Positions 1,794 through 28,373 are shown, numbered from the stretch's first letter. The stretch is 44,295 bases of DNA from a virus (IMGVR_UViG_3300033067_002050:1-44295); one strand, 5' to 3'. The notes: generated by a model from the letters alone, not told the origin. Numbers and translations are program-made.

Positions 1794-1958
1794 TTATCGG
1801 ACATGTCCAATATATTCATGGCTAAAACAAATTCTCTTATTATCTACGAAATGATTATTGTATATTTTCTTGTGCTTAACGTCAAGACGTAATTTCTTAT
1901 TTTTATGTGTTGGCCTCCAAAGTGGAGAATTTTCACGATAAAAACCCATTCGTGGATG
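1794..1958 (-). pseudogene. Orphan duplicate C-terminus of the GNAT gene
   Basis: Translates HPRMGFYRENSPLWRPTHKNKKLRLDVKHKKIYNNHFVDNKRICFSHEYIGHVR*; 36/51 residues identical to the C-terminus of 2690..3223. Confidence 0.92.
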
Positions 1959-1999
1959 CTTTTACTATTTTTAGACATATTTATTAATAAACTACGAAT

Positions 2000-2716
2000 A
2001 TGTCAAAAACATTAACTACAGAACAATTCATTGAAAAAGCTAATAAAATCCATAATAACAAATATGATTATTCAAAAACTAAATTTGTTAACAGCAAAAC
2101 TAAAGTTACAATTATTTGCCCAATACATGGCGAATTTGAACAGTTTCATGGTAAACATTTATCTAAAAAGGGATGTACAAAATGTGGGTTTATATCAAGA
2201 TGTAACATGGCCAGAAGTAATTCACACGATTTTATAATCAAAGCAATAAAAATTCATGGTGAGAAATATAAATACGATAGGGTTGTTTATACAGGTAAAG
2301 AAAACAAAGTAACAATTATTTGCGAAAAACATGGATACTTTAATCAAACACCACATAACCATTTAGCCGGTAATGGTTGTCCACATTGTAAAGAATCAAA
2401 GGGTGAGCGTGAAATAAGACAATTTTTATTTGAAAAAAATATTAAATTTACTCCACAAAAAAGATTTAAAGATTGTCGACATATATTACCACTACCATTT
2501 GATTTTTATCTTCCAGAACATAATATATGTATTGAATATCATGGTATACAACATTACAAACCAAGAAGTAAATTTGGTGGTGAAAAAGAGTTTAAACAAC
2601 TTATATTAAGAGATAAAATAAAGATGGAATATTGTATAGAAAATAATATAACACTTAAAATTATAAAATATAATGATAATCTATTACAATTACTTGAATC
2701 CTACATACTCAAATGA
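2000..2716 (+). CDS. Putative homing endonuclease (two Zn-ribbon repeats plus DUF559/PD-(D/E)XK-like nuclease)
   Basis: Repeats YDYSK..VTIICPIHGEF..GCxxC; C-terminal PFDFYLP..CIEYHGIQHY..RDKIK. Confidence 0.85.
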   Translation: MSKTLTTEQFIEKANKIHNNKYDYSKTKFVNSKTKVTIICPIHGEFEQFHGKHLSKKGCTKCGFISRCNMARSNSHDFIIKAIKIHGEKYKYDRVVYTGKENKVTIICEKHGYFNQTPHNHLAGNGCPHCKESKGEREIRQFLFEKNIKFTPQKRFKDCRHILPLPFDFYLPEHNICIEYHGIQHYKPRSKFGGEKEFKQLILRDKIKMEYCIENNITLKIIKYNDNLLQLLESYILK

Positions 2717-3169
2717 ACCGCACACTCGTTTATTATCAGCGTAGAAGTTATTATAAATTTTTTTATGCGTTATATCCTTTCTAAGTTTTTTATGTTTACT
2801 GGTTGGGCGCCATAATTGAGAATTCTCTCTATACCAAATCATTCGTGGATGTGCAGTTCTTGAAAAATAACGCAACCCTTGGTCAATATGATGTTGCGCA
2901 ATCGCATCCGAAAATCTAACACCTATACCCATACCTTGAAAATCGGGTAACACAACAGTTCGATGACCTCTCCATGCATCAGACACATATGGATTTGGCT
3001 GACGTAGACTAGCACCAAAAGCTACCACCTCACCATCCCAAACCCCAACATAACATCTGGCGGTTTTATTTACACCACCATCTAAATAGTGATGGCTTTT
3101 AAACATGGGCCATATATGATAGCTCGCTCTATAAATCTCAATGTTGATTTTCGGACGGACAAAAAAAAA
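2690..3169 (-). CDS. GNAT-type acetyltransferase domain, probably fused to the upstream ATPase by a -1 shift
   Basis: HHYL, RTVVLPDFQGMGIG acetyl-CoA-binding motif; no convincing start of its own; joins the upstream frame at the T9 run 3161-3169. Confidence 0.8.
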   Translation of the reverse strand, partial: FFFVRPKINIEIYRASYHIWPMFKSHHYLDGGVNKTARCYVGVWDGEVVAFGASLRQPNPYVSDAWRGHRTVVLPDFQGMGIGVRFSDAIAQHHIDQGLRYFSRTAHPRMIWYRENSQLWRPTSKHKKLRKDITHKKIYNNFYADNKRVCGSFEYVGFK

Positions 3170-3777
3170 CCAGAATGTAATTCTCCAGCATCTGTGTCGA
3201 TAACCCAATCGGGTTCCAACCAATCCAATATATCACGATGGCATGTAGACAAAATAATATTACTAATATCATTATTCTTAATGTATCTTGATAACGATAC
3301 CGACGCAGCTTTTGCAACAGTTCTGTCAACAACAGAAGTATATTCATCTATAATTGAATTTGATTTTAATTTTCTTGAAAGGTCAGCCCTGAATTTTTCA
3401 CCATTGGAAAGCACATGATATGGTTTATACCATGTAGGAATAGAGTTCAACCCAACAGCACCTAATTTATTGATTGCCTCATCAGTAGAATCAAAATGCG
3501 AAAGAATTGATTTATCTGGATTCCAATCTGGTTTTTCTTCTACACCAAATTGATTAAGCAAGGTTGATTTCCCAGAACCGCTAGACCCAACAATAACACC
3601 AATTTTAAAACGTTCGGGAATTTTTGACGGCTTCACCCATGGATAAAATTTAGATGTTCCATCAAACATACAGTCAAAGGCTATTTCACTAGCTTTGATA
3701 AAATCATCAGATTCTACATTACATATCAGTGGGTGGTCAGCTCTAACCAAAGTCTCTATTACTCTTTCCATGGCCAA
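3082..3777 (-). CDS. ABC-type ATPase domain
   Basis: Walker A GSSGSGKST, signature LSNGE, Walker B IIDEY, switch His (STCH). Confidence 0.9.
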   Translation of the reverse strand: MAMERVIETLVRADHPLICNVESDDFIKASEIAFDCMFDGTSKFYPWVKPSKIPERFKIGVIVGSSGSGKSTLLNQFGVEEKPDWNPDKSILSHFDSTDEAINKLGAVGLNSIPTWYKPYHVLSNGEKFRADLSRKLKSNSIIDEYTSVVDRTVAKAASVSLSRYIKNNDISNIILSTCHRDILDWLEPDWVIDTDAGELHSGFFLSVRKSTLRFIERAIIYGPCLKAITI

Positions 3778-3882
3778 AAGATAAATAAATTATATCCGAT
3801 GTAAAGCTTAGGTTATATAAATAGAAGAGCTAGGAAGTATAAAAATACCCCCTAGCTTCTTTATTTTTTGTTTTAAGTTTGA

Positions 3883-4089
3883 TTACTTACCCTTACCTAA
3901 GTTGGCCAATTTAGCTTCTAAATTGCTCAATCTAGTCTCTAAAATTGCTGTTTTATCACCCTTGGAAGCTTGTTCAGCTAACCATTCTTTTTTCTTAATT
4001 TCAACAGCTTCGGTGACAATCTTATCTATTAGATTTACCAATTCGGTTTCTTTGATTCTAACAGCTTTTGTGGTTTTTGACATATGCAT
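3883..4089 (-). CDS. Hypothetical small coiled-coil protein
   Basis: ORF with upstream ATATTTAT motif and downstream hairpin at about 3826-3860. Confidence 0.7.
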   Translation of the reverse strand: MHMSKTTKAVRIKETELVNLIDKIVTEAVEIKKKEWLAEQASKGDKTAILETRLSNLEAKLANLGKGK

Positions 4090-4166
4090 GAGTTTTTATA
4101 AAGATTCTTTATCTCTTAATAAATATGTATTAATTTAAAAAAAGATAAAGAATCAGAATTTTTTTC

Positions 4167-4679
4167 TCATTTGGCATATTTATCTCCACCATAACTAGCC
4201 GCCCAAGCGTCAGGTTTTATCTTGAACTCGTAACCCATACCAAGAATATAACCAACCGCTTCGCTCATAGCCTTGTTAGATTCCCATCTTGGGTCTGAGT
4301 TGATGTCAGCGTGGATTTCCATTTTGATACCGTATTGTTCCAAAATTGGTGCTATTTCATATGCTGTTTCGATAGATTTACCAACCTCAGTAATCATTCT
4401 CTCGTTAACCCCTTCCTTGTTCATTTTATAAACCTTCATTTGATATGTGGACTCGATTATCTTTCCACCTCTACCAACCAACACACCACCACCAAGGTTT
4501 TCCTTTACGGTTATCAAAATAACGGTAGCAAACTTATATTGAAACTTACCACTCTTTTGTGAGTCTGTTCCAACAGAAATTCTCCATTCATGGTTAGGCA
4601 ATTTTTCAGCCTTAATCAAGTTTTCCAAATACTCACTAATTGAGCCTTCGATTTTTTTTCCCGCTCTTCTCCAGTTCAT
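4167..4679 (-). CDS. RNase H-like YkuK (DUF458) family protein
   Basis: VGTDSQ, EVGKSIE, EIHADIN, KPDAWAAS motifs. Confidence 0.85.
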   Translation of the reverse strand: MNWRRAGKKIEGSISEYLENLIKAEKLPNHEWRISVGTDSQKSGKFQYKFATVILITVKENLGGGVLVGRGGKIIESTYQMKVYKMNKEGVNERMITEVGKSIETAYEIAPILEQYGIKMEIHADINSDPRWESNKAMSEAVGYILGMGYEFKIKPDAWAASYGGDKYAK

Positions 4680-4739
4680 AATACTAAATTTTAATCATTG
4701 TTATAAAAAAAAGCCTCCATTTGGGAGACTTTCACTATC

Positions 4740-6143
4740 TTAAAAATTAGTTGTAGGTAACAACTCTTTTAATTTTCGATAATTTTTTTCTCCGATATCC
4801 TTCTTATCCACCGCTAAATGAAATAGCGACCCACCATTTGATTTATCCAAATATTTAATTTCAGTAGGTATCTCCGTTAACGGATTCCCCATTAAATTTA
4901 AAAACGTTAACCCCTTAAGGTTTCCAATCTCTGAGGGTAATGATTTAATCCTATTTTTTGCCAATACCAACATTTCAAGCTTTGACAAGCTACCAATAGA
5001 GGGATGAAGCTCAACCATATTAGCACCAGTAATGATTAACTGGTCCAATAATTTGAACTTACTAATATCCGGCAACTTTGGTATTTCTCTACTCATAAAC
5101 CTAATTATTGGTGTATTAACATCAATTAATTCAAACAGACTCTCACAAAAACCAAATTTGATTAGAAAATCCAAATATTTGTTATTGTCTAACCCTGTTT
5201 TACATTGCTTAGCCATTCCAATTAACTCTTCATGGAAGAAATTGGAAAGACTTTCACTTTCACTAATAACGTTTTCAAAAATACTTACATTTTGAGAGTT
5301 ATGTCTGTCTTTAATTTGATTGGTCTCAAAATGTATTTGGTAAATCTCACTTGATTCACCTTTGAAAAACAAATTATTTATTATAATATAAATATCTGAC
5401 TTCCTACCATCAGGCTTACGATTATTGGTCGTATAAGAAGCAAACATTCCATTATCAACTTTAGCCGTACACCAGTTGGCATAATTATCAAAAATAACAT
5501 TAGCATCCCTCGTTTTGGGAATAAATAATGTGAATTTTCTATCACTAACCGGTATCATCGCTTGCCCAGCATCAACATAACGCATAAGCAAACGCTCTAA
5601 TTCACTTGGGTTCTTCTCAATAAATGGGTCAACAGCATCAAATAACTGAGATAATGACTTATACTGATTAATGTCAGTTGGGTCAGACATCCCCTTTAAT
5701 AAATACGACGAAGAACAAAGTTCTTTAAATCTCTTTTTTCCCTTGTTAGCCTCAAACAAACTAAGATAAATACCAGCCTGTGGTAAATCCTCACTAACAA
5801 AACGAATGGCCAAATTCATTGACTTAACACCTTCCCTGATAAACCTAGTAAAAACATTAAGCATCCACTGGACACATGATTTATTAGGTGTCGGGTCAGC
5901 AGAAATCATTTCTGAAAACACATCGAAAGAAACACTAATATGTTTCTTTATCCGCTCATTTTCACTGTTTTCCTTTATTGATAGAATTGCTAATACTTTC
6001 CCTTGATGTTCAATCAATTGGGTCTTATAACCAGCATCCTCAAGCTCTTTTAACTTGGCAACAATATTAATCCCATCATATTCGAAAACATCAAATTTGG
6101 CGGCTAAAAACGCAATTCTTCGACCTATTTTTGTTTCAATCAT
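4740..6143 (-). CDS. Leucine-rich-repeat protein with N-terminal WCT-motif domain
   Basis: C-terminal LRRs (LPSEIGNLKGLTFLNLMGNPLTEIP); DINQYKSL and ANWCTA motifs; Bacteroidota-type promoter at about 6167-6198. Confidence 0.8.
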   Translation of the reverse strand: MIETKIGRRIAFLAAKFDVFEYDGINIVAKLKELEDAGYKTQLIEHQGKVLAILSIKENSENERIKKHISVSFDVFSEMISADPTPNKSCVQWMLNVFTRFIREGVKSMNLAIRFVSEDLPQAGIYLSLFEANKGKKRFKELCSSSYLLKGMSDPTDINQYKSLSQLFDAVDPFIEKNPSELERLLMRYVDAGQAMIPVSDRKFTLFIPKTRDANVIFDNYANWCTAKVDNGMFASYTTNNRKPDGRKSDIYIIINNLFFKGESSEIYQIHFETNQIKDRHNSQNVSIFENVISESESLSNFFHEELIGMAKQCKTGLDNNKYLDFLIKFGFCESLFELIDVNTPIIRFMSREIPKLPDISKFKLLDQLIITGANMVELHPSIGSLSKLEMLVLAKNRIKSLPSEIGNLKGLTFLNLMGNPLTEIPTEIKYLDKSNGGSLFHLAVDKKDIGEKNYRKLKELLPTTNF

Positions 6144-6199
6144 AGACTAATTAACCCAATTTAGGACAAATATACTAAACAATATCTTAAAGTCCAAAT

Positions 6200-6544: not shown

Positions 6545-6619
6545 AATACAGTTTTTAATTTATGTTATCATATACATAAATATCTTAAAACCGGCAATTG
6601 GATTGATGGATAAGTTAAA

Positions 6620-6943: not shown

Positions 6944-6949
6944 ACAACA

Positions 6950-7288: not shown

Positions 7289-7343
7289 ATCACATAAATA
7301 TCTTCTAGATAACAAAAAAGGCCGTTTTCACAGCCTTTTTTTA

Positions 7344-7655: not shown

Positions 7656-7685
7656 AATTTAAATGTGTTTTATTTTAATAAATAT

Positions 7686-7994: not shown

Positions 7995-8021
7995 TTTAAG
8001 CGTAACAAATATTTATATGTA

Positions 8022-8489: not shown

Positions 8490-8981
8490 ATGGCGAATTA
8501 TAATTTTGAAACAGATATTCTGATTGGTGAAAACGGTGAACAAGTTATTATTGACGACCTTATCTCCATGGGCGGTACATTTGACTCCAACAATAAAACC
8601 AACTCACATGATATAATCATGATATACGACGGTAAGCCTATTAGCTACGAATGTAAGACAGATGTGTTTGATGACACTGGTAACATGTTCATTGAAACCA
8701 AATGCCGAGGAAAGGCCTCTGGTGTCTCTGTAACAAAGGCTAAGTGGTTTGTAACATATTTCAAAAAACTGAATGAAATCTGGTATATCAAAACATCTAA
8801 GCTAAAAACCATTCTTAAAAATAATGAACATAAAATAGCAACCAAATGCGGTGACCTAAATAGCGGAACCGAAGGTTACCTAATAAATAAAAATATGTTC
8901 CGGGATAAATTCATCGTTAGAGATTCAATCAGACATAAAGAGATTATACCAAAATGGCAAAAAAAGAGAAAATCAAATTAA
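8490..8981 (+). CDS. PD-(D/E)XK-family nuclease-like protein
   Basis: HDII...YECKTD...TGNMFIE motif. Confidence 0.65.
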   Translation: MANYNFETDILIGENGEQVIIDDLISMGGTFDSNNKTNSHDIIMIYDGKPISYECKTDVFDDTGNMFIETKCRGKASGVSVTKAKWFVTYFKKLNEIWYIKTSKLKTILKNNEHKIATKCGDLNSGTEGYLINKNMFRDKFIVRDSIRHKEIIPKWQKKRKSN

Positions 8982-9502
8982 GCATCGAACTTGTCCCTAA
9001 AACTTGTCACTACTCTAACGTAAGAACCACACTAAAACCAAAAGAATGGGATACCATACGATTTATTTCATATCAATTGGCAGATAATAAATGTGAAATT
9101 TGTGGACAAACAGGATTAGAACAAGGCTATGGACATAGAGTTGAATGTCACGAAATCTGGGAATATAACGATAAAAAATTCATTCAAAAATTAATTGGTG
9201 TTATTTCTCTTTGCCCACTATGCCACCAAGTTAAACATATTGGAAGAGCCAATGCAATGGGTAAACAAGCAGACGTTTTTAAACAACTTGAAACCGTTAA
9301 TAACTGGAACCATAAACAAGTAGTAGAACACGTGGCCGAATCATTTGAGACCTATTATGAACGTTCAAAACATGAATGGTTGCTTGATATATCTATATTA
9401 AAAAAACCTCCTTTTAATCTTGAGATTAACCCAATTATCAAAAGGAAGTTTAAAGGTAAATATAAACGAAAACGTCGTAAAAGAAAAACAACTAGAGCTT
9501 AA
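8954..9502 (+). CDS. HNH-type nuclease
   Basis: CEICG...ECHEIW...LCPLCHQVKH. Confidence 0.75.
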   Translation: MAKKEKIKLSIELVPKTCHYSNVRTTLKPKEWDTIRFISYQLADNKCEICGQTGLEQGYGHRVECHEIWEYNDKKFIQKLIGVISLCPLCHQVKHIGRANAMGKQADVFKQLETVNNWNHKQVVEHVAESFETYYERSKHEWLLDISILKKPPFNLEINPIIKRKFKGKYKRKRRKRKTTRA

Positions 9503-13999: not shown

Positions 14000-14001
14000 A
14001 G

Positions 14002-14394
14002 TTAAAGTAATTTTAATTCACCTGTTATCTTATCAACATCCTCGGCCCATGCCGGACCAATTGCACAACATGTCTTGGTAGCAACACCACCAAATTCAGT
14101 AACACCAGCATCTACAATCAAAGAACAAATCAACCCAGCTTGCTTAGCCTTGTTATAGATTTCAACCAATTCCTTCTCAGAATCAACACTCAAACAAACC
14201 TTGGTAAACCTACCCTCAATCCAATCCTCAAGAGGAGAACCAGCAACCATTTCCATGGTCATTGAATTCTTTTGTGGCTGAAATTTCATTATGTCTAAGA
14301 TTGCTTTCATTGAGGCATGTGCCCCCTGCGCAACCATTTTCCCCTTTCTCATGTTGAGGTCCTTCCTCATCACAATTACTTGCTTGCTTCCCAT
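14002..14394 (-). CDS. Peptidyl-tRNA hydrolase, Pth2 family
   Basis: KQVIVMRKDLNMRKGKMVAQGAHA, DAGxTE, AIGP, ITGELKLL. Confidence 0.95.
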   Translation of the reverse strand: MGSKQVIVMRKDLNMRKGKMVAQGAHASMKAILDIMKFQPQKNSMTMEMVAGSPLEDWIEGRFTKVCLSVDSEKELVEIYNKAKQAGLICSLIVDAGVTEFGGVATKTCCAIGPAWAEDVDKITGELKLL

Positions 14395-14696
14395 GTTAAT
14401 TCAATTTTTAAATCTTTAGGTATATTTAGGTCTGATAACTTATTTTTGGAAACTGGGAACGAAACATGCCGAACCTTTCCAAATTTATCACGGTCCTGAT
14501 AAATCTTACCATTTAAATAATAAACATTCTCAAGACCAGTATGATGCTGATGCCCATGGTCATAATCAATCTCATAAGGAACCTTCTGCCTCAATACCTC
14601 AATTCCATTCAAAAAGAAAATATAGTGACTCTTGCTAACTCCACTCATCGGATTTTTCTTATTACGTTGAAATTTAAATGTTAACTTATTTTCCAT
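14376..14696 (-). CDS. Hypothetical protein
   Basis: 106-aa ORF in operon. Confidence 0.65.
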   Translation of the reverse strand: MENKLTFKFQRNKKNPMSGVSKSHYIFFLNGIEVLRQKVPYEIDYDHGHQHHTGLENVYYLNGKIYQDRDKFGKVRHVSFPVSKNKLSDLNIPKDLKIELTWEASK

Positions 14697-14706
14697 GTTT
14701 TTTTAT

Positions 14707-14943
14707 TTATGCAAACCCATAAGGGGTTTTGGTAAAATTAATAAACGATAACTTTTCATCGACACATTGCTCACATAAATGAGCCTCCCAATGCTCTAAA
14801 TCCTTTTTGGTGCTGAAGCCCCAATAAGACTCAAGCTTCAACGTGTTTCCTCCGTATTCGTCCATACAAGATTTACCACAACAATCACAAGTCACATCAA
14901 CCATGACCTCAGTCTTAACCATTTGATATTCTGTCTTTATCAT
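14707..14943 (-). CDS. Hypothetical Zn-finger protein
   Basis: CDCCGKSC...LCEQC. Confidence 0.65.
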   Translation of the reverse strand: MIKTEYQMVKTEVMVDVTCDCCGKSCMDEYGGNTLKLESYWGFSTKKDLEHWEAHLCEQCVDEKLSFINFTKTPYGFA

Positions 14944-15569: not shown

Positions 15570-16236
15570 AATCACGTTTATAATAAACCCAATATTTCTT
15601 TAATAACATTCTTTTATCTCGTCTTGCGTTTTTAACATTACCCTTTGTGCATTTTAAAAATTCTGAAACCTCTCTTGAATTATTAAACTGGTTAATAATT
15701 TCATAATTCTCGTTCAATAATAACCAATCATCTTTTTTTTGTATTTCCGATATTTTTTTTCTAAACGCTTCAGATTTTCTTGAGAACTTAAATTTATCGG
15801 AATTAATCATAGCCAGTCGTCGCCGCTCAATTTCTTCCGGTAAAATTTTAAATCTTTTCCCAAACATACCGTTTCTTTCACCACTATTAGCAATCGAAAT
15901 TTTATTCTTAGATTCATTACTTAGTGTTACTCGCTTTCCACCCACATCAATATTAGTTAAATTTGAGTATTGGCTAATCCAGAAAACTTCCCTATCATTC
16001 ACAACCTCAAAATCACATTCTTCAATTAATTCAATAACAATTTTATTTTCAATGTTTTTACTTATTAATCGATATATCCAGTTTTCTTTATGCGTTAACA
16101 CTTTTTTTAATCTAAAATTTCGTTTTGTCTCATAAATATGACTTTTTAATCGATTACTTAGTTTGGCAATTGTTTGCCCAATATACCTAATTTCGTTTGT
16201 TTCAGGGCATCTTAACCCGTAAATAAATGCTTTCAT
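15505..16236 (-). CDS. GIY-YIG homing endonuclease with NUMOD-like repeats
   Basis: FIYGL..IRYIGQT, E.FWI, N..GG, SNESKNKIS, NGMFGK. Confidence 0.9.
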   Translation of the reverse strand: MKAFIYGLRCPETNEIRYIGQTIAKLSNRLKSHIYETKRNFRLKKVLTHKENWIYRLISKNIENKIVIELIEECDFEVVNDREVFWISQYSNLTNIDVGGKRVTLSNESKNKISIANSGERNGMFGKRFKILPEEIERRRLAMINSDKFKFSRKSEAFRKKISEIQKKDDWLLLNENYEIINQFNNSREVSEFLKCTKGNVKNARRDKRMLLKKYWVYYKRDYDNLLQIPTDATSPLVIGFNQ

Positions 16237-16254
16237 ATTAATAAATATCCGTAG

Positions 16255-16293
16255 TTACTGATACGTTCTGGGATATTTATAATACTGTTCCAT
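16255..16293 (-). pseudogene. Orphan original N-terminus of the RNA ligase
   Basis: MEQYYKYPRTYQ*; the current ligase begins MTTYYKYQRTLH; the ATG overlaps the upstream gene's stop (TAATG). Confidence 0.85.
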
Positions 16294-16697
16294 TATATTG
16301 TTTGTACCGTTTTAATCTTAAAAGAGAATTTACGCTCTTCAAAAAACTTAATCAACTCAACATTATCTCTGGGTATCTTGTAATAAACATACATCCAGTG
16401 AAACTCCATCACCAACCCAACCTCCTCCTCCAACATATCCAACCCAATATCAAACGGGCCAAATATCCAAGGCTTTTTATACTTAATCTTAGGGTCAATA
16501 TATGTTATTGCCAATGTGTTGAAACTAACCGAACAAAACTTGTTGATTAAATCCTTCTTAAACTCACTATGCTCACCAGCATATTCCCATCTAAGCTTAG
16601 TCAACTTATCCACATCCTTCGATTTACTACCAGAAGCATAGACATCAAACCTCAACACCAAATACTTTTTATCGTAAACTCTACCATGCTGTCTCAT
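16293..16697 (-). CDS. Hypothetical protein
   Basis: 134-aa ORF with ATGA coupling. Confidence 0.65.
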   Translation of the reverse strand: MRQHGRVYDKKYLVLRFDVYASGSKSKDVDKLTKLRWEYAGEHSEFKKDLINKFCSVSFNTLAITYIDPKIKYKKPWIFGPFDIGLDMLEEEVGLVMEFHWMYVYYKIPRDNVELIKFFEERKFSFKIKTVQTI

Positions 16698-17056
16698 ACA
16701 AAAATGACGTTTTTAAAAAATATTTGAATATCAGAATTTTCACTTAACTGCTCAACAATCGATGGCATATCAATATTATTTAAATGCTTTTGGGCTATGT
16801 TATTTAGCCTAATTACAAATATATGACCCAATAATAATATCGTTTCAATTTCTGACCTATCATCTTCACTTTCCATTTCATTAAACCAAAAATCACAATC
16901 GGTAATACCAAACTCACAAACAACTTGAAGAGCCCTTGCAACCCTTTCAGAATAACCTTCTTCCTCACATTGTCTAACAAGGCCTTCCAGTTTATCAAAA
17001 ACTGGTTTTAAGTTTCCAACGACATCTAACTCCGATAAAACAATTGTTCTTTCCAT
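16694..17056 (-). CDS. Hypothetical protein
   Basis: Likely start 17056; Bacteroidota promoter at about 17130-17161. Confidence 0.65.
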   Translation of the reverse strand: MERTIVLSELDVVGNLKPVFDKLEGLVRQCEEEGYSERVARALQVVCEFGITDCDFWFNEMESEDDRSEIETILLLGHIFVIRLNNIAQKHLNNIDMPSIVEQLSENSDIQIFFKNVIFV

Positions 17057-20889: not shown

Positions 20890-20965
20890 AGTTGCCAATT
20901 TAGAACTCAAATATAAGACTATTTTTAATACCAGCCAAATTTATTTTTAGTGGCTGAGAACGAGT

Positions 20966-20989
20966 AAGGGGCTTTGCAGCCCCTTTTTT
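20966..20989. terminator. Terminator hairpin
   Basis: AAGGGGC-TTTGCA-GCCCCTTTTTT. Confidence 0.7.
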
Positions 20990-20991
20990 GG

Positions 20992-21582
20992 TTAGAGTGT
21001 CAGGCCGTTGATTTTCAGGTCTTCCTTCCGGCCTAATTTAAACTGTTTGTATTTTGTTTCCCGGAGGTCAGCTGCTTTTTTAATCTGATTCTTAGCAATC
21101 GTAAGGGCTGCTGAATTAACAGTTTTGTAATTACCCTTTTGGATTACTGTCTTACGAACCATCAGGCCGTACAGGTACAAATAGCCGTCCTGTACTTTCA
21201 GGCCTTTAGCGATATGTTCATAGGCATCCTTTTGGGCATCACTGGCTTTGATTGTGGCATCACCTTTAGCCCTTAATTCGTCTTTTACGGATTCATCGGC
21301 TAACCTTTTACGCAGGCTTGTAACGAGGTCAGCATGAGCCTGTAAAACGATTCCTTTGTCGATATTGGTTTCCATTGTCAGTGGGTCAAAAGCCAATAAT
21401 TTTTGCAGGTCGTTTTTCAGCATATTGGTATAGTCGATACCAACAAGAAAGGTCTGGTTTGAAATTTCCCCTTCTTTATTTTGGTAATTTTGCACCCCTA
21501 CAAAAGACGTACCTTTGATGTTCTTTACAGATACGATTGTCAGAAGGGTGGCCAGAAGGTTGTTTGTTTTAACGAGTGTCAT
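20992..21582 (-). CDS. Hypothetical early protein
   Basis: 196 aa, own promoter at 21602. Confidence 0.85.
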   Translation of the reverse strand: MTLVKTNNLLATLLTIVSVKNIKGTSFVGVQNYQNKEGEISNQTFLVGIDYTNMLKNDLQKLLAFDPLTMETNIDKGIVLQAHADLVTSLRKRLADESVKDELRAKGDATIKASDAQKDAYEHIAKGLKVQDGYLYLYGLMVRKTVIQKGNYKTVNSAALTIAKNQIKKAADLRETKYKQFKLGRKEDLKINGLTL

Positions 21583-21723
21583 AGTAGATTGTTTTAGAAT
21601 ACAAATATAGGACTATTTCACATACCAACCAAATTTATTTTTGACTTTATTATGTGGATAACTTTATTTGGTAGATTGAAATAAATGTTGTAACTTTGCA
21701 CATTTTTCTTATTGGGCGATTAG

Positions 21724-21783
21724 AAAGTTCTGGGTAGAGTGGAGTATACTTCCCGCTTCGCAGCGTCTTGTCCTTTGACAGGT
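21724..21783 (-). ncRNA. Candidate small RNA, copy A
   Basis: Promoter followed by GTCAAAGGACAAGACGCTGCGAAGCGGGAAGTATACTCCACTCTACCCAGAAC; no ORF. Confidence 0.6.
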
Positions 21784-21819
21784 CAAAGATAGGACTATTT
21801 TTAATATAAACAAAAAAAA

Positions 21820-21843
21820 AAGAGGACTTTTTTTGTCCTCTTT
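21820..21843. terminator. Terminator hairpin (near-identical copy at 22173-22197)
   Basis: AAGAGGAC-N7-GTCCTCTT. Confidence 0.7.
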
Positions 21844-21864
21844 CTTTCCTTTATTTTGCCGGGT

Positions 21865-22119
21865 TTATTTTACGCCAGCCAGCTTTTTTAATTCGGCCTT
21901 GATACGTTTGGCATCCTCACCACGCCATGTGGTGGCATTGGCAAGGAAATACAGTACCATAGATTTGCCGGAATCTTGTCCGTAGTTATCGGTGATGTTG
22001 GTCAGTGATTCGAGGGCTTCAAGGTAAGGAACGGCACCGAAGTAAACCTTAGGCCATGTTTTGCGGATTTCGCTGGCAATTACGTGAAGCGGACGGGTTG
22101 TTGTTGCTGTTTGTGTCAT
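21865..22119 (-). CDS. Hypothetical early protein
   Basis: Own promoter; YFGAVPYL..YFLANATTWRG. Confidence 0.85.
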   Translation of the reverse strand: MTQTATTTRPLHVIASEIRKTWPKVYFGAVPYLEALESLTNITDNYGQDSGKSMVLYFLANATTWRGEDAKRIKAELKKLAGVK

Positions 22120-22206
22120 ATTGGTTTGATTTAGGATACAAAGATAGGGCTATTTTTGATACTACCAAAAAAAAGAGGACTTTATTTTGTCCTCTTTTCT
22201 GTTTTA

Positions 22207-22542
22207 TTAGTTCCCTTTATATTCGGGGATATATTCGATTTCTTTATCAATGGCATCGAAAAGCATATCGAAATACAGGCCAGTGATTTCTTTCTTTATT
22301 TCACCTTGCAGGGTTGTGATATGAACATCATACAGGTCTAATCCGTTGACTGAAATATATACATGACCTTTGTGGTGGTGGCCTTCAGATTTGAAGCGGA
22401 GGGCTTTATTTCCCATATTGGTAAAGGCATGAGCACCCCAAGACCAAAATTTAGGGCCATAGGATTGAAGTAGTTGCAGGGTTTCATGAACGTTCATTGT
22501 CCTGCAATTTTTGAATGTTTCGTGAAAATTGATTTTTGCCAT
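22207..22542 (-). CDS. Hypothetical early protein
   Basis: Own promoter; WSWGA..HKGHVYI..DLYDV. Confidence 0.85.
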   Translation of the reverse strand: MAKINFHETFKNCRTMNVHETLQLLQSYGPKFWSWGAHAFTNMGNKALRFKSEGHHHKGHVYISVNGLDLYDVHITTLQGEIKKEITGLYFDMLFDAIDKEIEYIPEYKGN

Positions 22543-22593
22543 AGTGGTTTGTTTTAGGATACAAAGATAGGACTATTTTTGATATTACCAAAA

Positions 22594-22767
22594 TTATTTT
22601 CGTCTTGCCGGATATTTTTTACGGAATAACATAATAGACTCCTTTTGATTGTATCCTATATATTTTTCTCGATACCCGTCCCTTTCGATTAAAGTTAGTT
22701 GAGGGTATTTCGTTATGGTCATTCTGTTGATTATACGGATAGAAAGCGCATTATTCAATAATTCCAT
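22594..22767 (-). CDS. Hypothetical early protein
   Basis: ATG 22767 after the promoter at 22786. Confidence 0.65.
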   Translation of the reverse strand: MELLNNALSIRIINRMTITKYPQLTLIERDGYREKYIGYNQKESIMLFRKKYPARRK

Positions 22768-22888
22768 GTGGCTTGTTTTAGACTTCAAAGATAAGACTAT
22801 TTTTGATATTACCAAAATAAAAATAAGACTATTTTTATTTTTTTGTTTCAGAATATTGTTCTATATTTGTGTCCTCAATCAATCAACT

Positions 22889-23092
22889 ATGGCAAAGACA
22901 CAAACATGGATTTTCTTTTATGAAGGCGAAGACTTCACAAAATACAAGGTATCTGAACGGGAATGTAAAAAGCCGGAACGTACCAAGAATTGGAATGAAA
23001 CGAGGGAATGTATTAAAATCCCGTTTCGCTCGTTTGGGGCTATGATAAAAGAGGATTTTGAGAAATATGATTATAAGGAACACGTAAGATAG
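22889..23092 (+). CDS. Hypothetical early protein
   Basis: ATG 22889 after TATATTTG at 22862; hairpin at about 23118-23141. Confidence 0.7.
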   Translation: MAKTQTWIFFYEGEDFTKYKVSERECKKPERTKNWNETRECIKIPFRSFGAMIKEDFEKYDYKEHVR

Positions 23093-23178
23093 TAATATGG
23101 GTTAGTTTTAGTAAGTTAGGGGTATTGAAAAATATCCCTTTCTTTTTTTGGTGGAATGAATAAATAGTCTTATCTTTG

Positions 23179-23230
23179 ACTTGTCAAACAGGACGGGACG
23201 CTGCGAAGCGGGAGGTATACTCCGACCTAT
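23179..23230 (+). ncRNA. Candidate small RNA, copy B
   Basis: ACTTGTCAAACAGGACGGGACGCTGCGAAGCGGGAGGTATACTCC after the promoter at 23147-23178. Confidence 0.6.
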
Positions 23231-23306
23231 GTGTTATTTTTTTATATGTTAAAAATGAAGAAAGCCCGTGGAAACGGGCTGACTTTATTCTGGCTATAAG
23301 AAAAGA

Positions 23307-23552
23307 CTAATAATCCGGGCCATCCTGAAAAACCTGTTCGGCTTCCCAATTATCACGGTCGCTTCCCTCATCAAAAGGCAACCCCTCATCATCGGGATAT
23401 TCGCCGTTCATATACTCCCATTGACGCTCTTCATTCTCAAAATACTCAGGTGCATCGTGACGGTTACAGGTTTCAAACTGGTCATCTAAGAATTCATCGG
23501 GTTCGTGAAACTCTTCAGGCTGAATCTGGGTGTCAAAATCGTCGTAAGTCAT
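23307..23552 (-). CDS. Highly acidic small protein
   Basis: Asp/Glu-rich 81 aa, own promoter. Confidence 0.8.
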   Translation of the reverse strand: MTYDDFDTQIQPEEFHEPDEFLDDQFETCNRHDAPEYFENEERQWEYMNGEYPDDEGLPFDEGSDRDNWEAEQVFQDGPDY

Positions 23553-23604
23553 AGTGGTTTGTTTTAGAATACAAATATAGGACTATTTTTGATATCCACC
23601 AAAT

Positions 23605-23835
23605 TTATTTTACCCGATAAAAGTGGATATAAGATAAGTCCTTGGTATAGGCAACTCTTAAATTGCCGGGGTATCCCCAGTAAGCGCCGCCTTTATCGTA
23701 TCCGCCGCTATCGAGTGGTACTTTACAATCATATATACGTTTATCCGTTGGCTTATGGGTTCCAACCTCAGGCCGTCCCATTGGTGCGCCGTATTGACAA
23801 TTTACAAGGGTTATGATTTGGTTTAATGTGCGCAT
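23605..23835 (-). CDS. Hypothetical early protein
   Basis: YGAPMGR..GYDKGGAYWG; stop abuts the next promoter. Confidence 0.8.
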   Translation of the reverse strand: MRTLNQIITLVNCQYGAPMGRPEVGTHKPTDKRIYDCKVPLDSGGYDKGGAYWGYPGNLRVAYTKDLSYIHFYRVK

Positions 23836-23978
23836 AGTTGATTAATTTAGGGGTTAAAAATCAGTAAGGCATGAATGTACTACGGTAACAATTAAGTTCG
23901 CTCCTTCCATATATTTACTACTTTATCTCCCCGCTGATTTCAATACAAATATAAGACTATTTATTCAAACCACCAAAT

Positions 23979-24188
23979 TTAATCCAATTGCCAGTCATGT
24001 TCCTCCCAAAATTTATTTTCACACTTAATAGTATGTTCCTCACTAGCAATATCACTAGCGGCTTCAATTACTTCTGATTCGGTTATGCCATCAAAAAGTA
24101 TATCAATCGCATCTTTTTCGGTAAAGGTTTCAACGCCTTTTTTTGTTAACTCTTCATTGAAGAGGACAAGAGCATCATTTTTTGTCAT
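23979..24188 (-). CDS. Acidic hypothetical early protein
   Basis: Own promoter. Confidence 0.75.
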   Translation of the reverse strand: MTKNDALVLFNEELTKKGVETFTEKDAIDILFDGITESEVIEAASDIASEEHTIKCENKFWEEHDWQLD

Positions 24189-24262
24189 AGTGGGTTGTTT
24201 TAGAATGCAAATATAAGACTATTTTTGATATCAGCCAAATTTATTTTGATTCTTTTTTTAAA

Positions 24263-24322
24263 GTAGAGTGGAGTATACTTCCCTACGGGGTTGCTCCAGT
24301 AGTCTGTCTTTGTTTGACAAGT
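24263..24322 (-). ncRNA. Candidate small RNA, copy C (diverged central hairpin)
   Basis: ACTTGTCAAACAAAGACAGACTACTGGAGCAACCCCGTAGGGAAGTATACTCCACTCTAC. Confidence 0.55.
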
Positions 24323-24424
24323 CAAAGATAGGACTATTTTTTGACATGACCAAATTTATTTTTAGAAAGATTTATTTGGTAATATGAAAAATAGTCTTAT
24401 ATTTGCATCCTAAAACAATCTATT

Positions 24425-24718
24425 ATGACACCATTTGAACAAGCTCGTAAGGCCGTTGCTGAGGGAAGATTAGATACTCCGTCAGTATCCAGTGTAAAAG
24501 GAACCATTGATTACTTCTGGTTTCAGCTGGTTAGCCATCATTTTTATATGAAAATCTTTGCCGCTGGTATGACAGCAAGGGGTGCAAACCTTAAGACCTA
24601 CAAAGTGTATTACGGTTTGAAAGGCAGAAGTGCCAAGGATTGCCTTCCTCAGTTTGAGAAAATCATGAATGATTACAAAGCGGAACTGGATGCGAAGCAA
24701 CAAGCGGCCCAGAATTAA
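24425..24718 (+). CDS. Hypothetical early protein
   Basis: Promoter at 24375-24405 and terminator at 24723-24746. Confidence 0.85.
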   Translation: MTPFEQARKAVAEGRLDTPSVSSVKGTIDYFWFQLVSHHFYMKIFAAGMTARGANLKTYKVYYGLKGRSAKDCLPQFEKIMNDYKAELDAKQQAAQN

Positions 24719-24722
24719 ACAG

Positions 24723-24746
24723 AAGCCCCTGAGGGGCTTTTTTTTT
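24723..24746 (+). terminator. Rho-independent terminator
   Basis: AAGCCCC-TGA-GGGGCTT followed by a T-run. Confidence 0.85.
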
Positions 24747-24763
24747 GTGTTATATGTATTGAT

Positions 24764-24779
24764 GTACACAAAAGTGTAC
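24764..24779. repeat. GTACAC-N4-GTGTAC palindrome (family)
   Basis: Other copies at 25085, 31864, 42651, 43533; degenerate at 43214; half-sites at about 42683 and 44230. Confidence 0.85.
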
Positions 24780-24886
24780 TGGTCAGGAATCGCCTAGGAA
24801 TGGCTTTAAACCAAAATCCCTCTACCATTTACTGGAGAGGAAATTAAGGTCTAAATCAAACTACTAATCTTCAATCGGGTTATTAA

Positions 24887-25069
24887 TTACGCTTTTAAGA
24901 GCTTAATAGTATCTTGTAATTGTTTAAAGGTTGCTAGGTTGATTGTTTCTTTAACCTCAGGGTAATACTTTAAGAGAAAGCTTTGCATTTCAGTCTTAGA
25001 GTTTAAACTCACTTCATTGGCGGCTTTTCTTTTTTCGCACATCAACTCAAATTCTTTGCTTAGTGTCAT
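24887..25069 (-). CDS. Hypothetical protein
   Basis: Likely start near 25069. Confidence 0.6.
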   Translation of the reverse strand: MTLSKEFELMCEKRKAANEVSLNSKTEMQSFLLKYYPEVKETINLATFKQLQDTIKLLKA

Positions 25070-25099
25070 GATGGTTGGGTTTATGTACACAAAAGTGTA

Positions 25100-25204
25100 C
25101 TATTCATTGCCTTTCCTTATGGTTTTAACGAATGCAAGGACTATAAAGCAGATTACCATAAGAAATATTAATTCAGTTGTTGTACCATTAAATGGAATAA
25201 ACAT
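25100..25204 (-). CDS. 34-aa single-transmembrane peptide (not in ORF track)
   Basis: MFIPFNGTTTELIFLMVICFIVLAFVKTIRKGNE*, after the promoter at 25221. Confidence 0.6.
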   Translation of the reverse strand: MFIPFNGTTTELIFLMVICFIVLAFVKTIRKGNE

Positions 25205-25258
25205 TTGGATAATTTTAGGGCAAAGATAGGGGGAATCTTTTGATTCCCCAAATCTATT

Positions 25259-25465
25259 TTAGGCTGGTGTTACCGTTCCTTGTTTCAGGGCAAAGGGGAA
25301 GTAAGCTTTGCCTTTCAGGTTCATTTTGCGGAGGAAAGCTTTTACTCTTGCTTCATCACCGTTGAGGTACATGGTTTTTTCCCGGCCAGCGTAACGTGTT
25401 TCAACGTTATCTTTTCCGGCGAGATTGCGGAGTGTTTCTTTCGTAGAGGTTGCAACTGTTGGCAT
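25259..25465 (-). CDS. Hypothetical early protein
   Basis: Own promoter. Confidence 0.75.
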   Translation of the reverse strand: MPTVATSTKETLRNLAGKDNVETRYAGREKTMYLNGDEARVKAFLRKMNLKGKAYFPFALKQGTVTPA

Positions 25466-25537
25466 AAAAAATTGTTTTTAGTTTGATTTGATTTATTAAC
25501 GATGTAAAGATAATACTATTTTTGTTATCCACCAAAT

Positions 25538-25750
25538 TTATTTTGGTAAATAGGGTTTAAGGTCATGATGAGAAAGGTCATTCAGCTTTAATATTTCCAC
25601 ATCTTTGAATGAATTGGGGTTCGGTCTGTGAGAAATAGATATCCATGAATCTACTCCATGGGTATCACCATCAAGACCAATAGATATTTCCACGTTATAC
25701 TTTTCCAGTAAGTCGTAGAGTTCTTTGATGAATTGAGGTTTATTTTCCAT
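25538..25750 (-). CDS. Hypothetical early protein
   Basis: Own promoter. Confidence 0.75.
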   Translation of the reverse strand: MENKPQFIKELYDLLEKYNVEISIGLDGDTHGVDSWISISHRPNPNSFKDVEILKLNDLSHHDLKPYLPK

Positions 25751-25805
25751 GTGTTGTTTGATTTTGATACCTCAAAAATAAGACTATTTTTAATACGAAC
25801 CAAAT

Positions 25806-26354
25806 TTATCTTGATTTGGCAATGGTTCGTCCCATTGAATCTTCAATCTCATATTTCCAGCCCTTGAATCGGTTGCGAATGATTTTTTTAATTACCGCAA
25901 TCAGTTCCTCTTCACTTTCCCAGCAATTGGTTTCACTCCCAACCCTATAACACTCCCAACGTTCAGGGTCATCAAATATTTCTTGGCTGGTGAGTTCACG
26001 GACCACCGAAATTTGATAGCTCTTTGCATCATTGGGTTTGAACTTATCAAACGAACCACTGATACTAGATTGACATTTCTTTCCGTCTTCTATATATGAA
26101 AGGTTGGGGTCAGAGAGATGTATTTTAGCGTAGTAATGAATAGCGCCAATAGAGATGCCACGCCATGAGGTAATCTTGGCCTGTATGATACCACTATATC
26201 GGTCACGGGGAAGGGTTGTGTATTCCGTACCTTCATCATCCTTGAACTTAACTCCAACACCAAAATCCACAGGAATAATATCGGGGAGGGTTCCTTCACC
26301 GTATTCAACCTGACAATGTTTCAGGGCTGTTTGGAGTGCTGTTTCTTTTGCCAT
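25806..26354 (-). CDS. Hypothetical early protein (probably leaderless)
   Basis: -7 box lies 4 nt before the ATG. Confidence 0.8.
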   Translation of the reverse strand: MAKETALQTALKHCQVEYGEGTLPDIIPVDFGVGVKFKDDEGTEYTTLPRDRYSGIIQAKITSWRGISIGAIHYYAKIHLSDPNLSYIEDGKKCQSSISGSFDKFKPNDAKSYQISVVRELTSQEIFDDPERWECYRVGSETNCWESEEELIAVIKKIIRNRFKGWKYEIEDSMGRTIAKSR

Positions 26355-26369
26355 GATGTAAAGATAGGA

Positions 26370-26462
26370 TTATTTTGTTAAAGCGCCAAATATTGTGAAT
26401 GCCAATATCAGTGCAATCCAGATAAGGGATACAGTGACAGGCCAATTTTTTTCTGTTTTCAT
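26370..26462 (-). CDS. 30-aa single-transmembrane peptide (not in ORF track)
   Basis: MKTEKNWPVTVSLIWIALILAFTIFGALTK*, ATGA-coupled. Confidence 0.6.
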   Translation of the reverse strand: MKTEKNWPVTVSLIWIALILAFTIFGALTK

Positions 26463-26671
26463 TGGATTGTGATATTTTTGATTTTGGCAATGTAGTTTAC
26501 ATCATTCATATCATAACAGAAGACCATACGGTCTGACATTGGAATGCCAAGGAACCGGAAGCCTTGATGAATTTCATAACAGATATTAGGCACACCCTTG
26601 TAATAAAAGTACTTGTACTTAAGGAAGTAACCAGTATCGGGGTTAAAGAGGAATTTCCAAATACGTTTCAT
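26459..26671 (-). CDS. Hypothetical protein
   Basis: ATGA-coupled. Confidence 0.65.
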   Translation of the reverse strand: MKRIWKFLFNPDTGYFLKYKYFYYKGVPNICYEIHQGFRFLGIPMSDRMVFCYDMNDVNYIAKIKNITIQ

Positions 26672-26874
26672 GCTGTTTTAGTTGTTGGTTTATTAGTTAT
26701 ATGATGTTTTACATATCTTAAAACATTACAAAAAAATATAAGTTGGTGTATATCCGCACTTGGGAATTCAGCCAATTCTCTAACAGCATTTTCAGCTTCA
26801 GTAATAAAAGTTTTCTCACCAAGCTTTTTTATATTACGCTCAACGTATAATTGATAAGGAAGTTTTTTTGCCAT
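26668..26874 (-). CDS. Hypothetical early protein
   Basis: Own promoter. Confidence 0.7.
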   Translation of the reverse strand: MAKKLPYQLYVERNIKKLGEKTFITEAENAVRELAEFPSADIHQLIFFCNVLRYVKHHITNKPTTKTA

Positions 26875-26925
26875 GATTGATTGATTTAGATATCAAAGAT
26901 AAGGGTATTTTTTCAAACCGCCAAA

Positions 26926-27231
26926 TTAATCTTCAAGCCATTTATACATATCCCAATCATTCTCTTTGGTCAGCCGGAAAGCAGCATCAGGAATCTTCTC
27001 ACAGGTTTCATCAATATCGCAATAAATAACACGCATTTCCTTATAGCGCCGGGATTTACGTACTATCAGCGTATTGATAACATTGGTCTTCACACCTGTA
27101 ATCATTTTGAAGTGGTTCGATAGGTTCTCAAGGGTAGAAATGATTGAGTGGATATTATCGGTTGATTCACCATATCCGGCAATGTAGAAAAGCTTTTTAT
27201 CTGATTCGGAGTAGAATAATTCTTTTGCCAT
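26926..27231 (-). CDS. Hypothetical early protein
   Basis: Own promoter. Confidence 0.8.
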   Translation of the reverse strand: MAKELFYSESDKKLFYIAGYGESTDNIHSIISTLENLSNHFKMITGVKTNVINTLIVRKSRRYKEMRVIYCDIDETCEKIPDAAFRLTKENDWDMYKWLED

Positions 27232-27261
27232 GGTTGTTGATTTGAGAAGTCAAAGATAAGA

Positions 27262-27330
27262 CTATTTATTCATTCCACCAAATAAATGTTTGCGCAGGGC
27301 ATATCTTGCATTATCGTCACACCATTGGTT
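27262..27330 (-). pseudogene. Orphan original C-terminus of the RNase H
   Basis: NQWCDDNARYALRKHLFGGMNK* versus the active end NEWCHINAKAAVQPKIKNYPV*. Confidence 0.75.
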
Positions 27331-27376
27331 TTTAGTCACACCACTGATTTTTATCTCTTTCTACATATTTATAAAT

Positions 27377-27934
27377 ATGACAGAACAACAACGAATTAAA
27401 CAACGAGCATACCGAGCAGCTAATGCCGAAAGGGTTAAAGCCAATAGAAAACGATATATGGATGAAAATAAAGACATGATTAACCAAAAGAAAAAACTTT
27501 GGCGTGAGGCTAACCCCGATACCGTAAAACAAATGAATAAATTAAGCCATATTAAACGCAGGGATAAAACTAATGAGTATCAAAATATTAAATATAAAAA
27601 TAATCCAACATTTAGACTTAGAAAAAAAATGGCTAATGCCATTGGTAAAGCATTTAAACGAAACGGTTATCCGAAATCTTCAACCACTGAATTAATATTA
27701 GGTTGCTCTTATAATGATTTTAAAGAATATATTGAAAGCAAATTTGAATCATGGATGAATTGGAATAACTACGGTCTGTATAATGGTACTGAAAGGTATG
27801 GATGGGATATTGACCATATTATCCCAATAGCATCAGCAATGACAGAAAACGAAATTATTCAATTAAATCATTACACCAACTTACAGCCATTATGTAGTAA
27901 ACTTAACCGAGATATTAAACGGGATAATTTTTAA
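27377..27934 (+). CDS. HNH homing endonuclease
   Basis: LGCS..F..WMNW.NYG..WDIDHIIP..HYTNLQPL; ATG 27377 after ATATTTAT; antisense to its neighbours. Confidence 0.88.
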   Translation: MTEQQRIKQRAYRAANAERVKANRKRYMDENKDMINQKKKLWREANPDTVKQMNKLSHIKRRDKTNEYQNIKYKNNPTFRLRKKMANAIGKAFKRNGYPKSSTTELILGCSYNDFKEYIESKFESWMNWNNYGLYNGTERYGWDIDHIIPIASAMTENEIIQLNHYTNLQPLCSKLNRDIKRDNF

Positions 27935-28373
27935 TCTTGGGTTGTACTGCCGCCTTAGCGTTTATGTGGCACCATTCGTTTACCCAGTTCCTTTTTGTCT
28001 TGGTATGCTTATGACTCTTTACATGTCTGAATTCAATCTGACAGGTCAGGTTCATATCAACCAGCAGTTTTTTATATGCCTCCAACAATGAACCACCCCA
28101 CTTTGATGAAGTATAGTTATTATTTACGAGGTTTATCGTAGTAAGACTATCAGTATTGATGATTATTTTTTTAAGGTTGGTTAACTTACGACTACCAACC
28201 TTATGCAGGGCATTGATGATACATTTGAATTCAGCTTCATGTGAGGTTATTATTTCACCCTTCAATACACCAGCTTGCTTTATACGTCCCGTATCGGTTG
28301 TAATCCAGAACGCATAACCAGCAGCTTTTTGTGTGGGGTAAAAGGAAGCATCAGTATTGATTGTTACCATCAT
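27915..28373 (-). CDS. Ribonuclease HI-like protein
   Basis: NTDASF, EAEF, NTDS, FRHVKSH, NEWC. Confidence 0.88.
   Translation of the reverse strand: MMVTINTDASFYPTQKAAGYAFWITTDTGRIKQAGVLKGEIITSHEAEFKCIINALHKVGSRKLTNLKKIIINTDSLTTINLVNNNYTSSKWGGSLLEAYKKLLVDMNLTCQIEFRHVKSHKHTKTKRNWVNEWCHINAKAAVQPKIKNYPV

Follow-up and report, generated by a model that had tools for sequence, protein, structure and literature searches.

Candidate homing nucleases that replace gene ends without splicing in a DNA fragment of a probable jumbo phage

Introduction

How might a nuclease gene come to lie within a conserved gene that keeps a complete reading frame and is not spliced? The question is raised by three sites in the virus record IMGVR_UViG_3300033067_002050, all 44,295 bases of which were analyzed here (the window). 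At each site, a nuclease gene lies between an intact host gene, encoding an ATPase-GNAT protein, an RNA ligase, or an RNase H, and a diverged, stranded copy of one end of that gene, and it overlaps the end now in use; the inserts measure 893, 728, and 650 bp, respectively. A preliminary description of this DNA had proposed that each nuclease replaced the terminus of the gene it interrupts, and it placed all three arrangements correctly. It was also right that the enzymes, which belong to the Vsr-fold/DUF723, GIY-YIG, and HNH families, are mutually unrelated.

Our answer is that each of the three nucleases is likely a homing element, which would bring a substitute end to its host gene, leave the original end stranded, and spread by cutting uninvaded copies with no splicing involved. 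Confidence that we are dealing with such elements is high for the GIY-YIG nuclease and equally high for the Vsr-fold nuclease, and for the HNH nuclease the balance tips only slightly in favor. Relatives of the window's genes sit in complete phage genomes of 327 to 372 kb, and the window probably represents part of a jumbo phage genome. DNA nearly identical to it was present in sequencing runs from seven studies of wastewater, sludge, and river.

Results

An RNA ligase interrupted by a GIY-YIG gene

The RNA ligase provides the strongest of the three cases. Read on the minus strand, its body (PF09414; 14940-15534) is preceded by a substitute N-terminus (15535-15569) lying in another frame inside the tail of nuclease 2 (15505-16236), a GIY-YIG type with a NUMOD3 motif; beyond the nuclease come a copy of the motif ATATTTAT (16241-16248) and the stranded original N-terminus (16259-16293), which ends past a T-Y-H breakpoint. 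The ligase start in use, at 15569, creates a 65-nucleotide (nt) overlap with the nuclease gene, and the two versions of the duplicated codons are identical at 17 of 26 nt. Nuclease 2 was assigned from its match to TIGR01453, a group I intron endonuclease model (E = 1.4e-10, under the curated cutoff of that model), and from homologs that bear PF01541 or are named group I intron endonucleases.

A natural allele lacking the nuclease was present in run X12, where a contig passes directly from 16259 to 15530, save for 4 intervening letters, and so lacks the 728 nt taken up by the GIY-YIG insertion; cover in that run was zero in a bin inside the gene. Because the join leaves 35 + 4 = 39 nt before 15530, as in the start now in use, the stranded start is in frame, and this empty allele is continuous across the insertion site. 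Loci L011/L026 (79% identical) have no GIY-YIG gene either, and their ligase starts with MEQIYFKYPRTYHLPWS, like the stranded start.

Among 77 loci with a GIY-YIG match, several of which are near duplicates, the ligase was in the locus for 20 of the 23 best matches and for none of the 54 weaker ones; a GIY-YIG scan of viral contigs gave only two distant loci. One breakpoint recurs, the stranded starts of L225, L226, L228, L253, L239, L240, and L251 all ending after the same T-x-H codons. At the opposite edge of the element, the ligase start is an ATG within the conserved D-Y-(D/E) tail codons of the nuclease in the window, L225, L227, and L238, and an extension read out of frame from the tail occurs likewise in protein P0134.

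Two other features of this site were recorded. A contig of run X13 (15855-16923) carries 105 differences over the GIY-YIG start and the upstream gene and represents an occupied allele that has diverged within the same population. Many ligase relatives (L226, L237, and most of L012-L027) are about 340 amino acids (aa) long and possess an additional domain at the N-terminus, in which an H-H-I-I-E-R motif occurs; only the 210-aa form is present in the window and L011.

A GNAT gene and the wider Vsr-fold family

At the GNAT site, the host gene upstream of the junction (2852-3777, minus strand) runs into a substitute C-terminus of 53 codons (2690-2851, minus strand), the final 27 nt of which overlap nuclease 1 (2000-2716, plus strand). 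A copy of ATATTTAT (1977-1984, plus strand) precedes the nuclease, and beyond it lies the stranded original C-terminus, from HPRMG to the stop (1794-1958, minus strand). In-use and stranded ends are identical at 99 of 159 nt and 36 of 53 aa, and the junction is the same in four occupied alleles: those of the window, L001, L028/L029, and L030.

Eight GNAT loci are free of the nuclease, with an orphan-like end in six and the in-use type in two (L002 and L010). The orphan-like empty alleles are 58 to 64% identical to the stranded end of the window, compared with 52 to 54% to its in-use end, and in a tree the in-use ends form one starred clade (99/97), separate from the stranded ends and the orphan-like empty alleles. 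No empty GNAT allele was found among the contig joints of four runs, three of which had low cover. In L008 (4463-4747, minus strand), the neighboring gene carries, directly after the GNAT stop, a fused remnant of 28 aa from the tail of a nuclease 1 family member, a deletion scar indicating that loss of the nuclease by deletion occurs.

In locus L030 (about 2900-5400), two paralogous DUF723 nucleases have invaded the GNAT gene in nested fashion. The gene is followed there by the second nuclease, then by the earlier substitute end, then by nuclease 1, and last by the original end; the entry point of the second nuclease, which brought a third type of end, is 120 nt further upstream, and two stranded ends were left behind. 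As a separate matter, the frame shifts by -1 where the ATPase and GNAT halves of the host gene are joined, at a GG-T(8-9) run (3171-3161 in the window). The shift is conserved, being present in 12 of 12 loci examined (the window, L001-L008, and L028-L030), and this run is likely a programmed frameshift or slippage site.

Nuclease 1 combines DUF723-type zinc (Zn)-ribbon repeats with a catalytic domain of the PD-(D/E)XK type. It matched Pfam DUF723 and PHROG endonuclease families, and a sequence search of the PDB with it gave no match. The folds best matching a model of the catalytic domain (predicted local distance difference test score, 92) were those of Vsr (Z = 11.1; root mean square deviation, 2.7; 101 residues aligned) and I-Bth0305I (Z = 10.7; root mean square deviation, 2.6; 89 residues aligned), and in Foldseek the Vsr/I-Bth0305I folds (PDB 3r3p and 1cw0) took ranks 1 to 3 (E = 0.009 to 0.015). 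As modeled, the domain has a Vsr-like PD-(D/E)XK fold; D, E, G, Q, and H are invariant across 28 relatives.

In a screen of distinct nuclease loci, in which a flanking terminus duplication was counted at a z score of at least 5, the Vsr-fold family had duplications in 11 of 63 loci. They fell at six host genes, namely, GNAT, a neck/head-tail adaptor, a 5'-3' exonuclease (at its 5' end), and three poorly annotated genes. At the neck gene, the nuclease-free locus L300 agrees with the stranded end of L033 at 30 of 33 nt, versus 20 of 33 for the in-use end of L033, and the downstream flank is shared. The two form a second natural empty/occupied pair, in which the in-frame end of the empty allele is of the stranded type; L301, found through the neck gene, is also occupied.

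The preliminary description had further supposed that the end in use is recoded, which would destroy the cut site, and recoding directed at that site is not supported. Mismatches overall are not enriched near the junction (84/270 versus 254/870), and junction-focused recoding was rejected as a general rule, although L033 and L043 do show mismatches focused there. Given this lack of concentration, the substitute ends look more like foreign alleles than like recoded copies.

An RNase H gene beside an HNH nuclease

The RNase H element is the weakest of the three cases, and its HNH family shows no general pattern. The host body (PF00075; 27981-28373, minus strand) continues into a substitute C-terminus (27915-27980, minus strand), the final 20 nt of which overlap nuclease 3 (27377-27934, plus strand), an HNH/endonuclease VII-like enzyme identified from annotated HNH relatives and a weak match to phrog_1035 (E = 7e-8). 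Ahead of the nuclease are ATATTTAT (27365-27372, plus strand), a second stranded copy of only five codons (NQWCD and then a stop; 27335-27349, minus strand) at the edge of the element, and, 19 nt from that copy, the main stranded C-terminus (27262-27330, minus strand).

The ends in use and stranded share only 6 of 21 aa. Where the in-use end has His, 118 of 120 RNase H homologs have Asp, and the stranded end has this conserved Asp as well. With a profile of 115 homolog C-termini, the stranded end came first among 88,478 window positions at 30.2 bits, followed by the in-use end at 12.7 and the next position at -8.2. The closest homolog, P0002 (71%; a protein without context), agrees with the stranded end at 14 of 18 positions and with the in-use end at 7 of 18.

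Viral and genome scans and a degenerate pattern scan turned up no close empty allele of RNase H in its DNA context; an alignment scan gave distant loci only, four related records had no match, and cultured phages were less than 36% identical. All four runs mapped over this region had cover across the HNH gene. The closest HNH orthologs are P0144 (82%) and P0145 (63%), and a genome scan for orthologs gave eight distant loci, six of which were tested and showed no duplication. The window holds two further HNH genes of the same family (42707-43234, plus strand, and 43554-44171, minus strand), each with ATATTTAT, at which no terminus duplication was found.

Assembly, splicing, and motifs

Misassembly, a danger raised in the preliminary description, is very unlikely, since contigs of other runs bridge the junctions. 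They come from X17 (1584-2059), X12 (2658-3401), and X8 (2584-3456) in the GNAT area; from X8 (14436-15939) and X13 (14000-15879 and 15855-16923) in the ligase area; and from X13 (25305-29500), X16 (27205-28044), and X6 (27253-28219) in the RNase H area. These runs belong to studies P2, P3, P4, and P5; the source samples of the record are possibly within P2 or P3, not P4 or P5.

Nor is an intron evident, as had been stated. A search of the window against Rfam gave no match, and the inserts are almost wholly filled by the open reading frame (ORF), the substitute end, and a spacer of 20 to 45 nt, with no space for a ribozyme core around the ORFs; on these two grounds, an ORF within a group I intron that splices itself was rejected. 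Two of the three nucleases are antisense to the host gene, and the frame of every host gene is complete as it stands in the DNA. In the RNA runs X6 and X8, the contigs show no splicing, though they are possibly derived from DNA.

The motif ATATTTAT was correctly noticed upstream of all three nucleases, and it is not peculiar to them. It has 21 copies in the window against about 9 expected, with 13 of the 21 standing 4 to 31 nt ahead of an ORF of at least 50 aa; of these 13, 8 are ORFs other than the nucleases discussed here. Since it precedes so many other ORFs, we regard it as a general promoter-like motif of the phage and rejected it as a signature of the elements.

Elsewhere in the window, blocks of repeated promoters ending in TATCTTTG lie between small genes at about 20900-29400 (three copies matched). 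We take this promoter motif to be of the Bacteroidota type, and the repeated blocks suggest a Bacteroidota host. Many contig joints connect positions within the same region, which suggests module shuffling. Two more nuclease-like genes stand in tandem at 8490-8981 and 8954-9502 (plus strand), the second matching an HNH PHROG, and a 467-aa phage protein with leucine-rich repeats at its C-terminus is encoded at 4740-6143 (minus strand).

Discussion

Homing by replacement of gene ends in phages appears to be real and recurrent, being well supported for the GIY-YIG and Vsr-fold nucleases and plausible for HNH. The mobile unit would consist of the substitute end, the nuclease gene, and its promoter. 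The nuclease would cut the empty allele at or near the junction, and the fixed breakpoints suggest a cut in that neighborhood. Repair from the occupied genome would then use the upstream gene body and the stranded end as homology arms, on the model of the yeast WHO elements compared below, and the recipient would acquire the substitute end and the nuclease as its own end turned into a new stranded copy. An occupied allele would be protected from cutting, its site being split by the insertion and unlike the foreign end in sequence. In the ligase, the new start codon is supplied by an ATG within the nuclease's own tail codons, and a later deletion could remove a nuclease and leave its substitute end in place. 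Each element could plausibly have originated in a first illegitimate join from a nuclease beside a resistant allele.

Several observations weigh against this reading. The empty ligase allele of X12 is seen in one contig, which has a depth of 3.6, reaches only 35 nt past the join on its shorter side, and may stem from a related phage. Ten GIY-YIG loci (L229-L236, L244, and L245, some being near duplicates) stand head to head with an intact ligase, the KYPRTYH consensus being kept in L232 and L234, and in L239, L240, L242, and L251 a complete ligase is accompanied by an antisense stub next to the promoter; the family is tied to the ligase target yet uses several layouts. The preliminary description had expected empty alleles to carry the orphan-type end in frame, which is so for the ligase, the neck gene, and, at the level of type, six of eight GNAT loci, but L002 and L010 have the in-use GNAT end with neither nuclease nor scar, which goes part of the way toward one of the refutations that description had named. 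The stranded GNAT ends do not group with empty alleles with support, the GNAT core tree does not resolve, and for the stranded subtype present in the window no close empty allele came to light. In the duplication screen, 52 of 63 Vsr-fold loci had no duplication at z 5. The ligase control set of 14 loci gave none, and that of RNase H gave 5 in 65 loci, the five being, as judged by eye, four GC-rich low-complexity alignments and one paralogous start.

The HNH nuclease fares worst. At z 5, 1 of 26 HNH loci scored (L222, where a nuclease remnant rather than a host gene is duplicated), and the window's own locus has a z of 3.8. None of 44 HNH loci is near RNase H, and none of 79 RNase H loci is near this HNH gene. 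The 119 RNase H homologs do not discriminate between the ends, 50 being nearer the stranded end and 46 nearer the in-use end, with 23 ties. What stands of the earlier proposal is therefore insertion inside a gene, with a substitute end and a stranded native end, best seen in the ligase (X12 and L011) and seen also in the Vsr-fold family (the four GNAT alleles and the neck pair); as a general strategy of three families it recurs in two, the HNH family having no host-gene duplication at the cutoff in 26 loci.

A function for the stranded piece that is compatible with homing, and that we consider possible though unlikely, is that it is kept as a putative binding site through which the nuclease represses itself, as I-TevI does (PMC2988022, in its accessible text). 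Coding sequence of the KYPRTxH type is present immediately upstream of the GIY-YIG start in either orientation, even where it is decayed or stands beside a complete ligase, as in the four loci with an antisense stub, and L001 keeps the junction-near part of its stranded GNAT end. Closeness to the promoter, however, follows from geometry alone.

We give rather less credence to a scar left by intronless homing of the T4 type, in which a nuclease beside a resistant allele suffered one illegitimate repair join and the stranded end is a leftover with no later role. T4 seg and mob genes spread by such intronless homing (PMC2988022), the nuclease-free in-use GNAT end of L002 and L010 may be a free allele, ten GIY-YIG loci adjoin an intact ligase, and the ends in use look foreign rather than recoded. 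A single accident fits poorly, however, with a junction that is identical to the base in diverged phages and a layout that arose at six genes, and the stranded ends retain locus-specific sequence and a flank common to empty alleles (L033/L300), as expected if they are renewed from the recipient. Such a join may still account for the first formation of each element.

Untargeted insertion with a local duplication and later drift, around a nuclease that does not cut its host gene, strikes us as improbable overall and is most plausible for HNH, whose family is very large (3,774 matches) and has no tie to RNase H and whose two other genes in the window lack a duplication. The RNase H end now in use, moreover, has little length and little conservation. 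It is opposed by the tie of the GIY-YIG family to a single target and a single breakpoint and by the separate clade that in-use GNAT ends form across phages. At RNase H itself, the tiny second stranded copy suggests repeated events at one place. The Asp-to-His position of the window we take to be D134 of the Escherichia coli enzyme. That RNase H tolerates the change, D134 mutants to N or H retaining reduced activity in the accessible account (PMC4032109), which also speaks against drift of an untargeted insert. An unrecognized intron or an assembly error is scarcely credible in spite of the group I intron endonuclease label that sources give to GIY-YIG homologs, given the absence of an Rfam match, inserts nearly filled by ORF, substitute end, and spacer, two antisense nucleases, complete frames without splicing, and bridging contigs from several studies.

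Homing by gene-end replacement thus remains our preferred explanation, and we lean slightly toward a broader view of it as a common and many-times-evolved strategy of jumbo phages, one that would employ at least three unrelated nuclease families at 5' and 3' ends, would draw a new start from a nuclease tail in another frame, and would let rival elements stack in an arms race that rewrites the ends of enzymes and virion proteins. If several nuclease families of phages do this, conserved genes are open to free-standing nucleases that need no splicing, and the ends of phage genes have a history different from that of the gene bodies, with consequences for trees and annotation. Because stranded ends mark likely cut sites, each element offers a ready nuclease-target pair, and natural empty/occupied pairs are available in the ligase (X12/L011 versus the window) and the neck gene (L300 versus L033).

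The cited accounts of known systems are compared here as far as their accessible parts go. Closest in host are the free-standing endonucleases of phages, the T4 seg and mob genes with their "intronless homing" (PMC2988022 and PMC2790892; also PMC8351571) and the CapR/DUF723 nuclease genes of ICP1 (PMC10448857), which share with the window GIY-YIG, HNH, and DUF723-type nucleases that adjoin their targets and often overlap them. T4 genes, in contrast, sit between genes and cut hundreds of bases away. That position between intact genes is absent from the window, where the empty ligase allele is continuous, and is present in the ten head-to-head GIY-YIG relatives. The within-gene insertions of Aeh1 nrdA and T4 gene 60 differ in yielding split proteins, and the accessible parts of those accounts include no stranded duplicated end.

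The catalytic domain of nuclease 1 shares its predicted fold with I-Bth0305I and other Vsr-fold (EDxHD) homing endonucleases. I-Bth0305I is intron encoded, whereas nuclease 1 is free-standing, is about 19% identical to it, and has Zn-ribbon repeats that are likely its DNA-binding part.

Replacement ends of the kind that the preliminary description had mentioned for fungal mitochondria do exist. Endonuclease-ORF gene hybrids are described for atp6 of Allomyces and for atp6, atp9, cox2, and nad3 of Glomus (PMC3630166), along with C-terminal duplications (PMC6279837). As in the window, a foreign C-terminus is in use, an endonuclease ORF follows, the native C-terminus is stranded downstream, and an empty relative matches it. 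The fungal cases differ in being mitochondrial, with respiratory or ATP synthase hosts, in taking the C-terminal form, and in their ORFs, which are of the LAGLIDADG or GIY-YIG type and in some cases share the frame of the host gene.

The closest precedent, which that description missed, is the WHO elements at FBA1 of Torulaspora and Lachancea yeasts, for which the layout, allele-specific cleavage, and serial clusters have been documented (Coughlan et al. 2020, PMC7282813; see also Osborne et al. 2026, 10.64898/2026.08.13.744650). WHO-type homing has been called a third class, "considerably more rare" than introns and inteins, in the 2026 preprint (10.64898/2026.08.13.744650). In the literature searched, in which subscription papers were thinly covered and supplements not included, no description of the gene-end-replacement layout in phages was found, and a word-start text search of both WHO papers did not find the word phage.

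The correspondence with WHO is close. In both, an endonuclease gene, antisense in some cases, has a full-length host gene on one side and a duplicated piece of it on the other, and the gene end is replaced; WHO elements do this with no splicing, and the phage elements probably do so too. The fragment-type end is in frame in empty alleles (for the ligase in X12/L011 and for the neck gene in L300, for GNAT at the level of type in six of eight loci, and for RNase H in protein P0002 only), and successive invasions pile up, the latest being closest to the gene, here at one locus, L030. WHO proteins, in contrast, are intein-derived LAGLIDADG-Zn finger enzymes related to HO and VDE, with mainly one yeast target, and their cleavage has been demonstrated, whereas cleavage by the phage elements is a prediction; these elements comprise Vsr-fold, GIY-YIG, and HNH nucleases with many targets and with short ends (12 to 87 codons), 5' as well as 3', that overlap the nuclease ORF. 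Because nuclease and host both differ, the phage elements would work like WHO without being members of that group. Gene-end replacement was known from yeasts and fungal mitochondria, and what the window and its relatives appear to add is its occurrence in phages, with other nucleases, and at 5' ends too.

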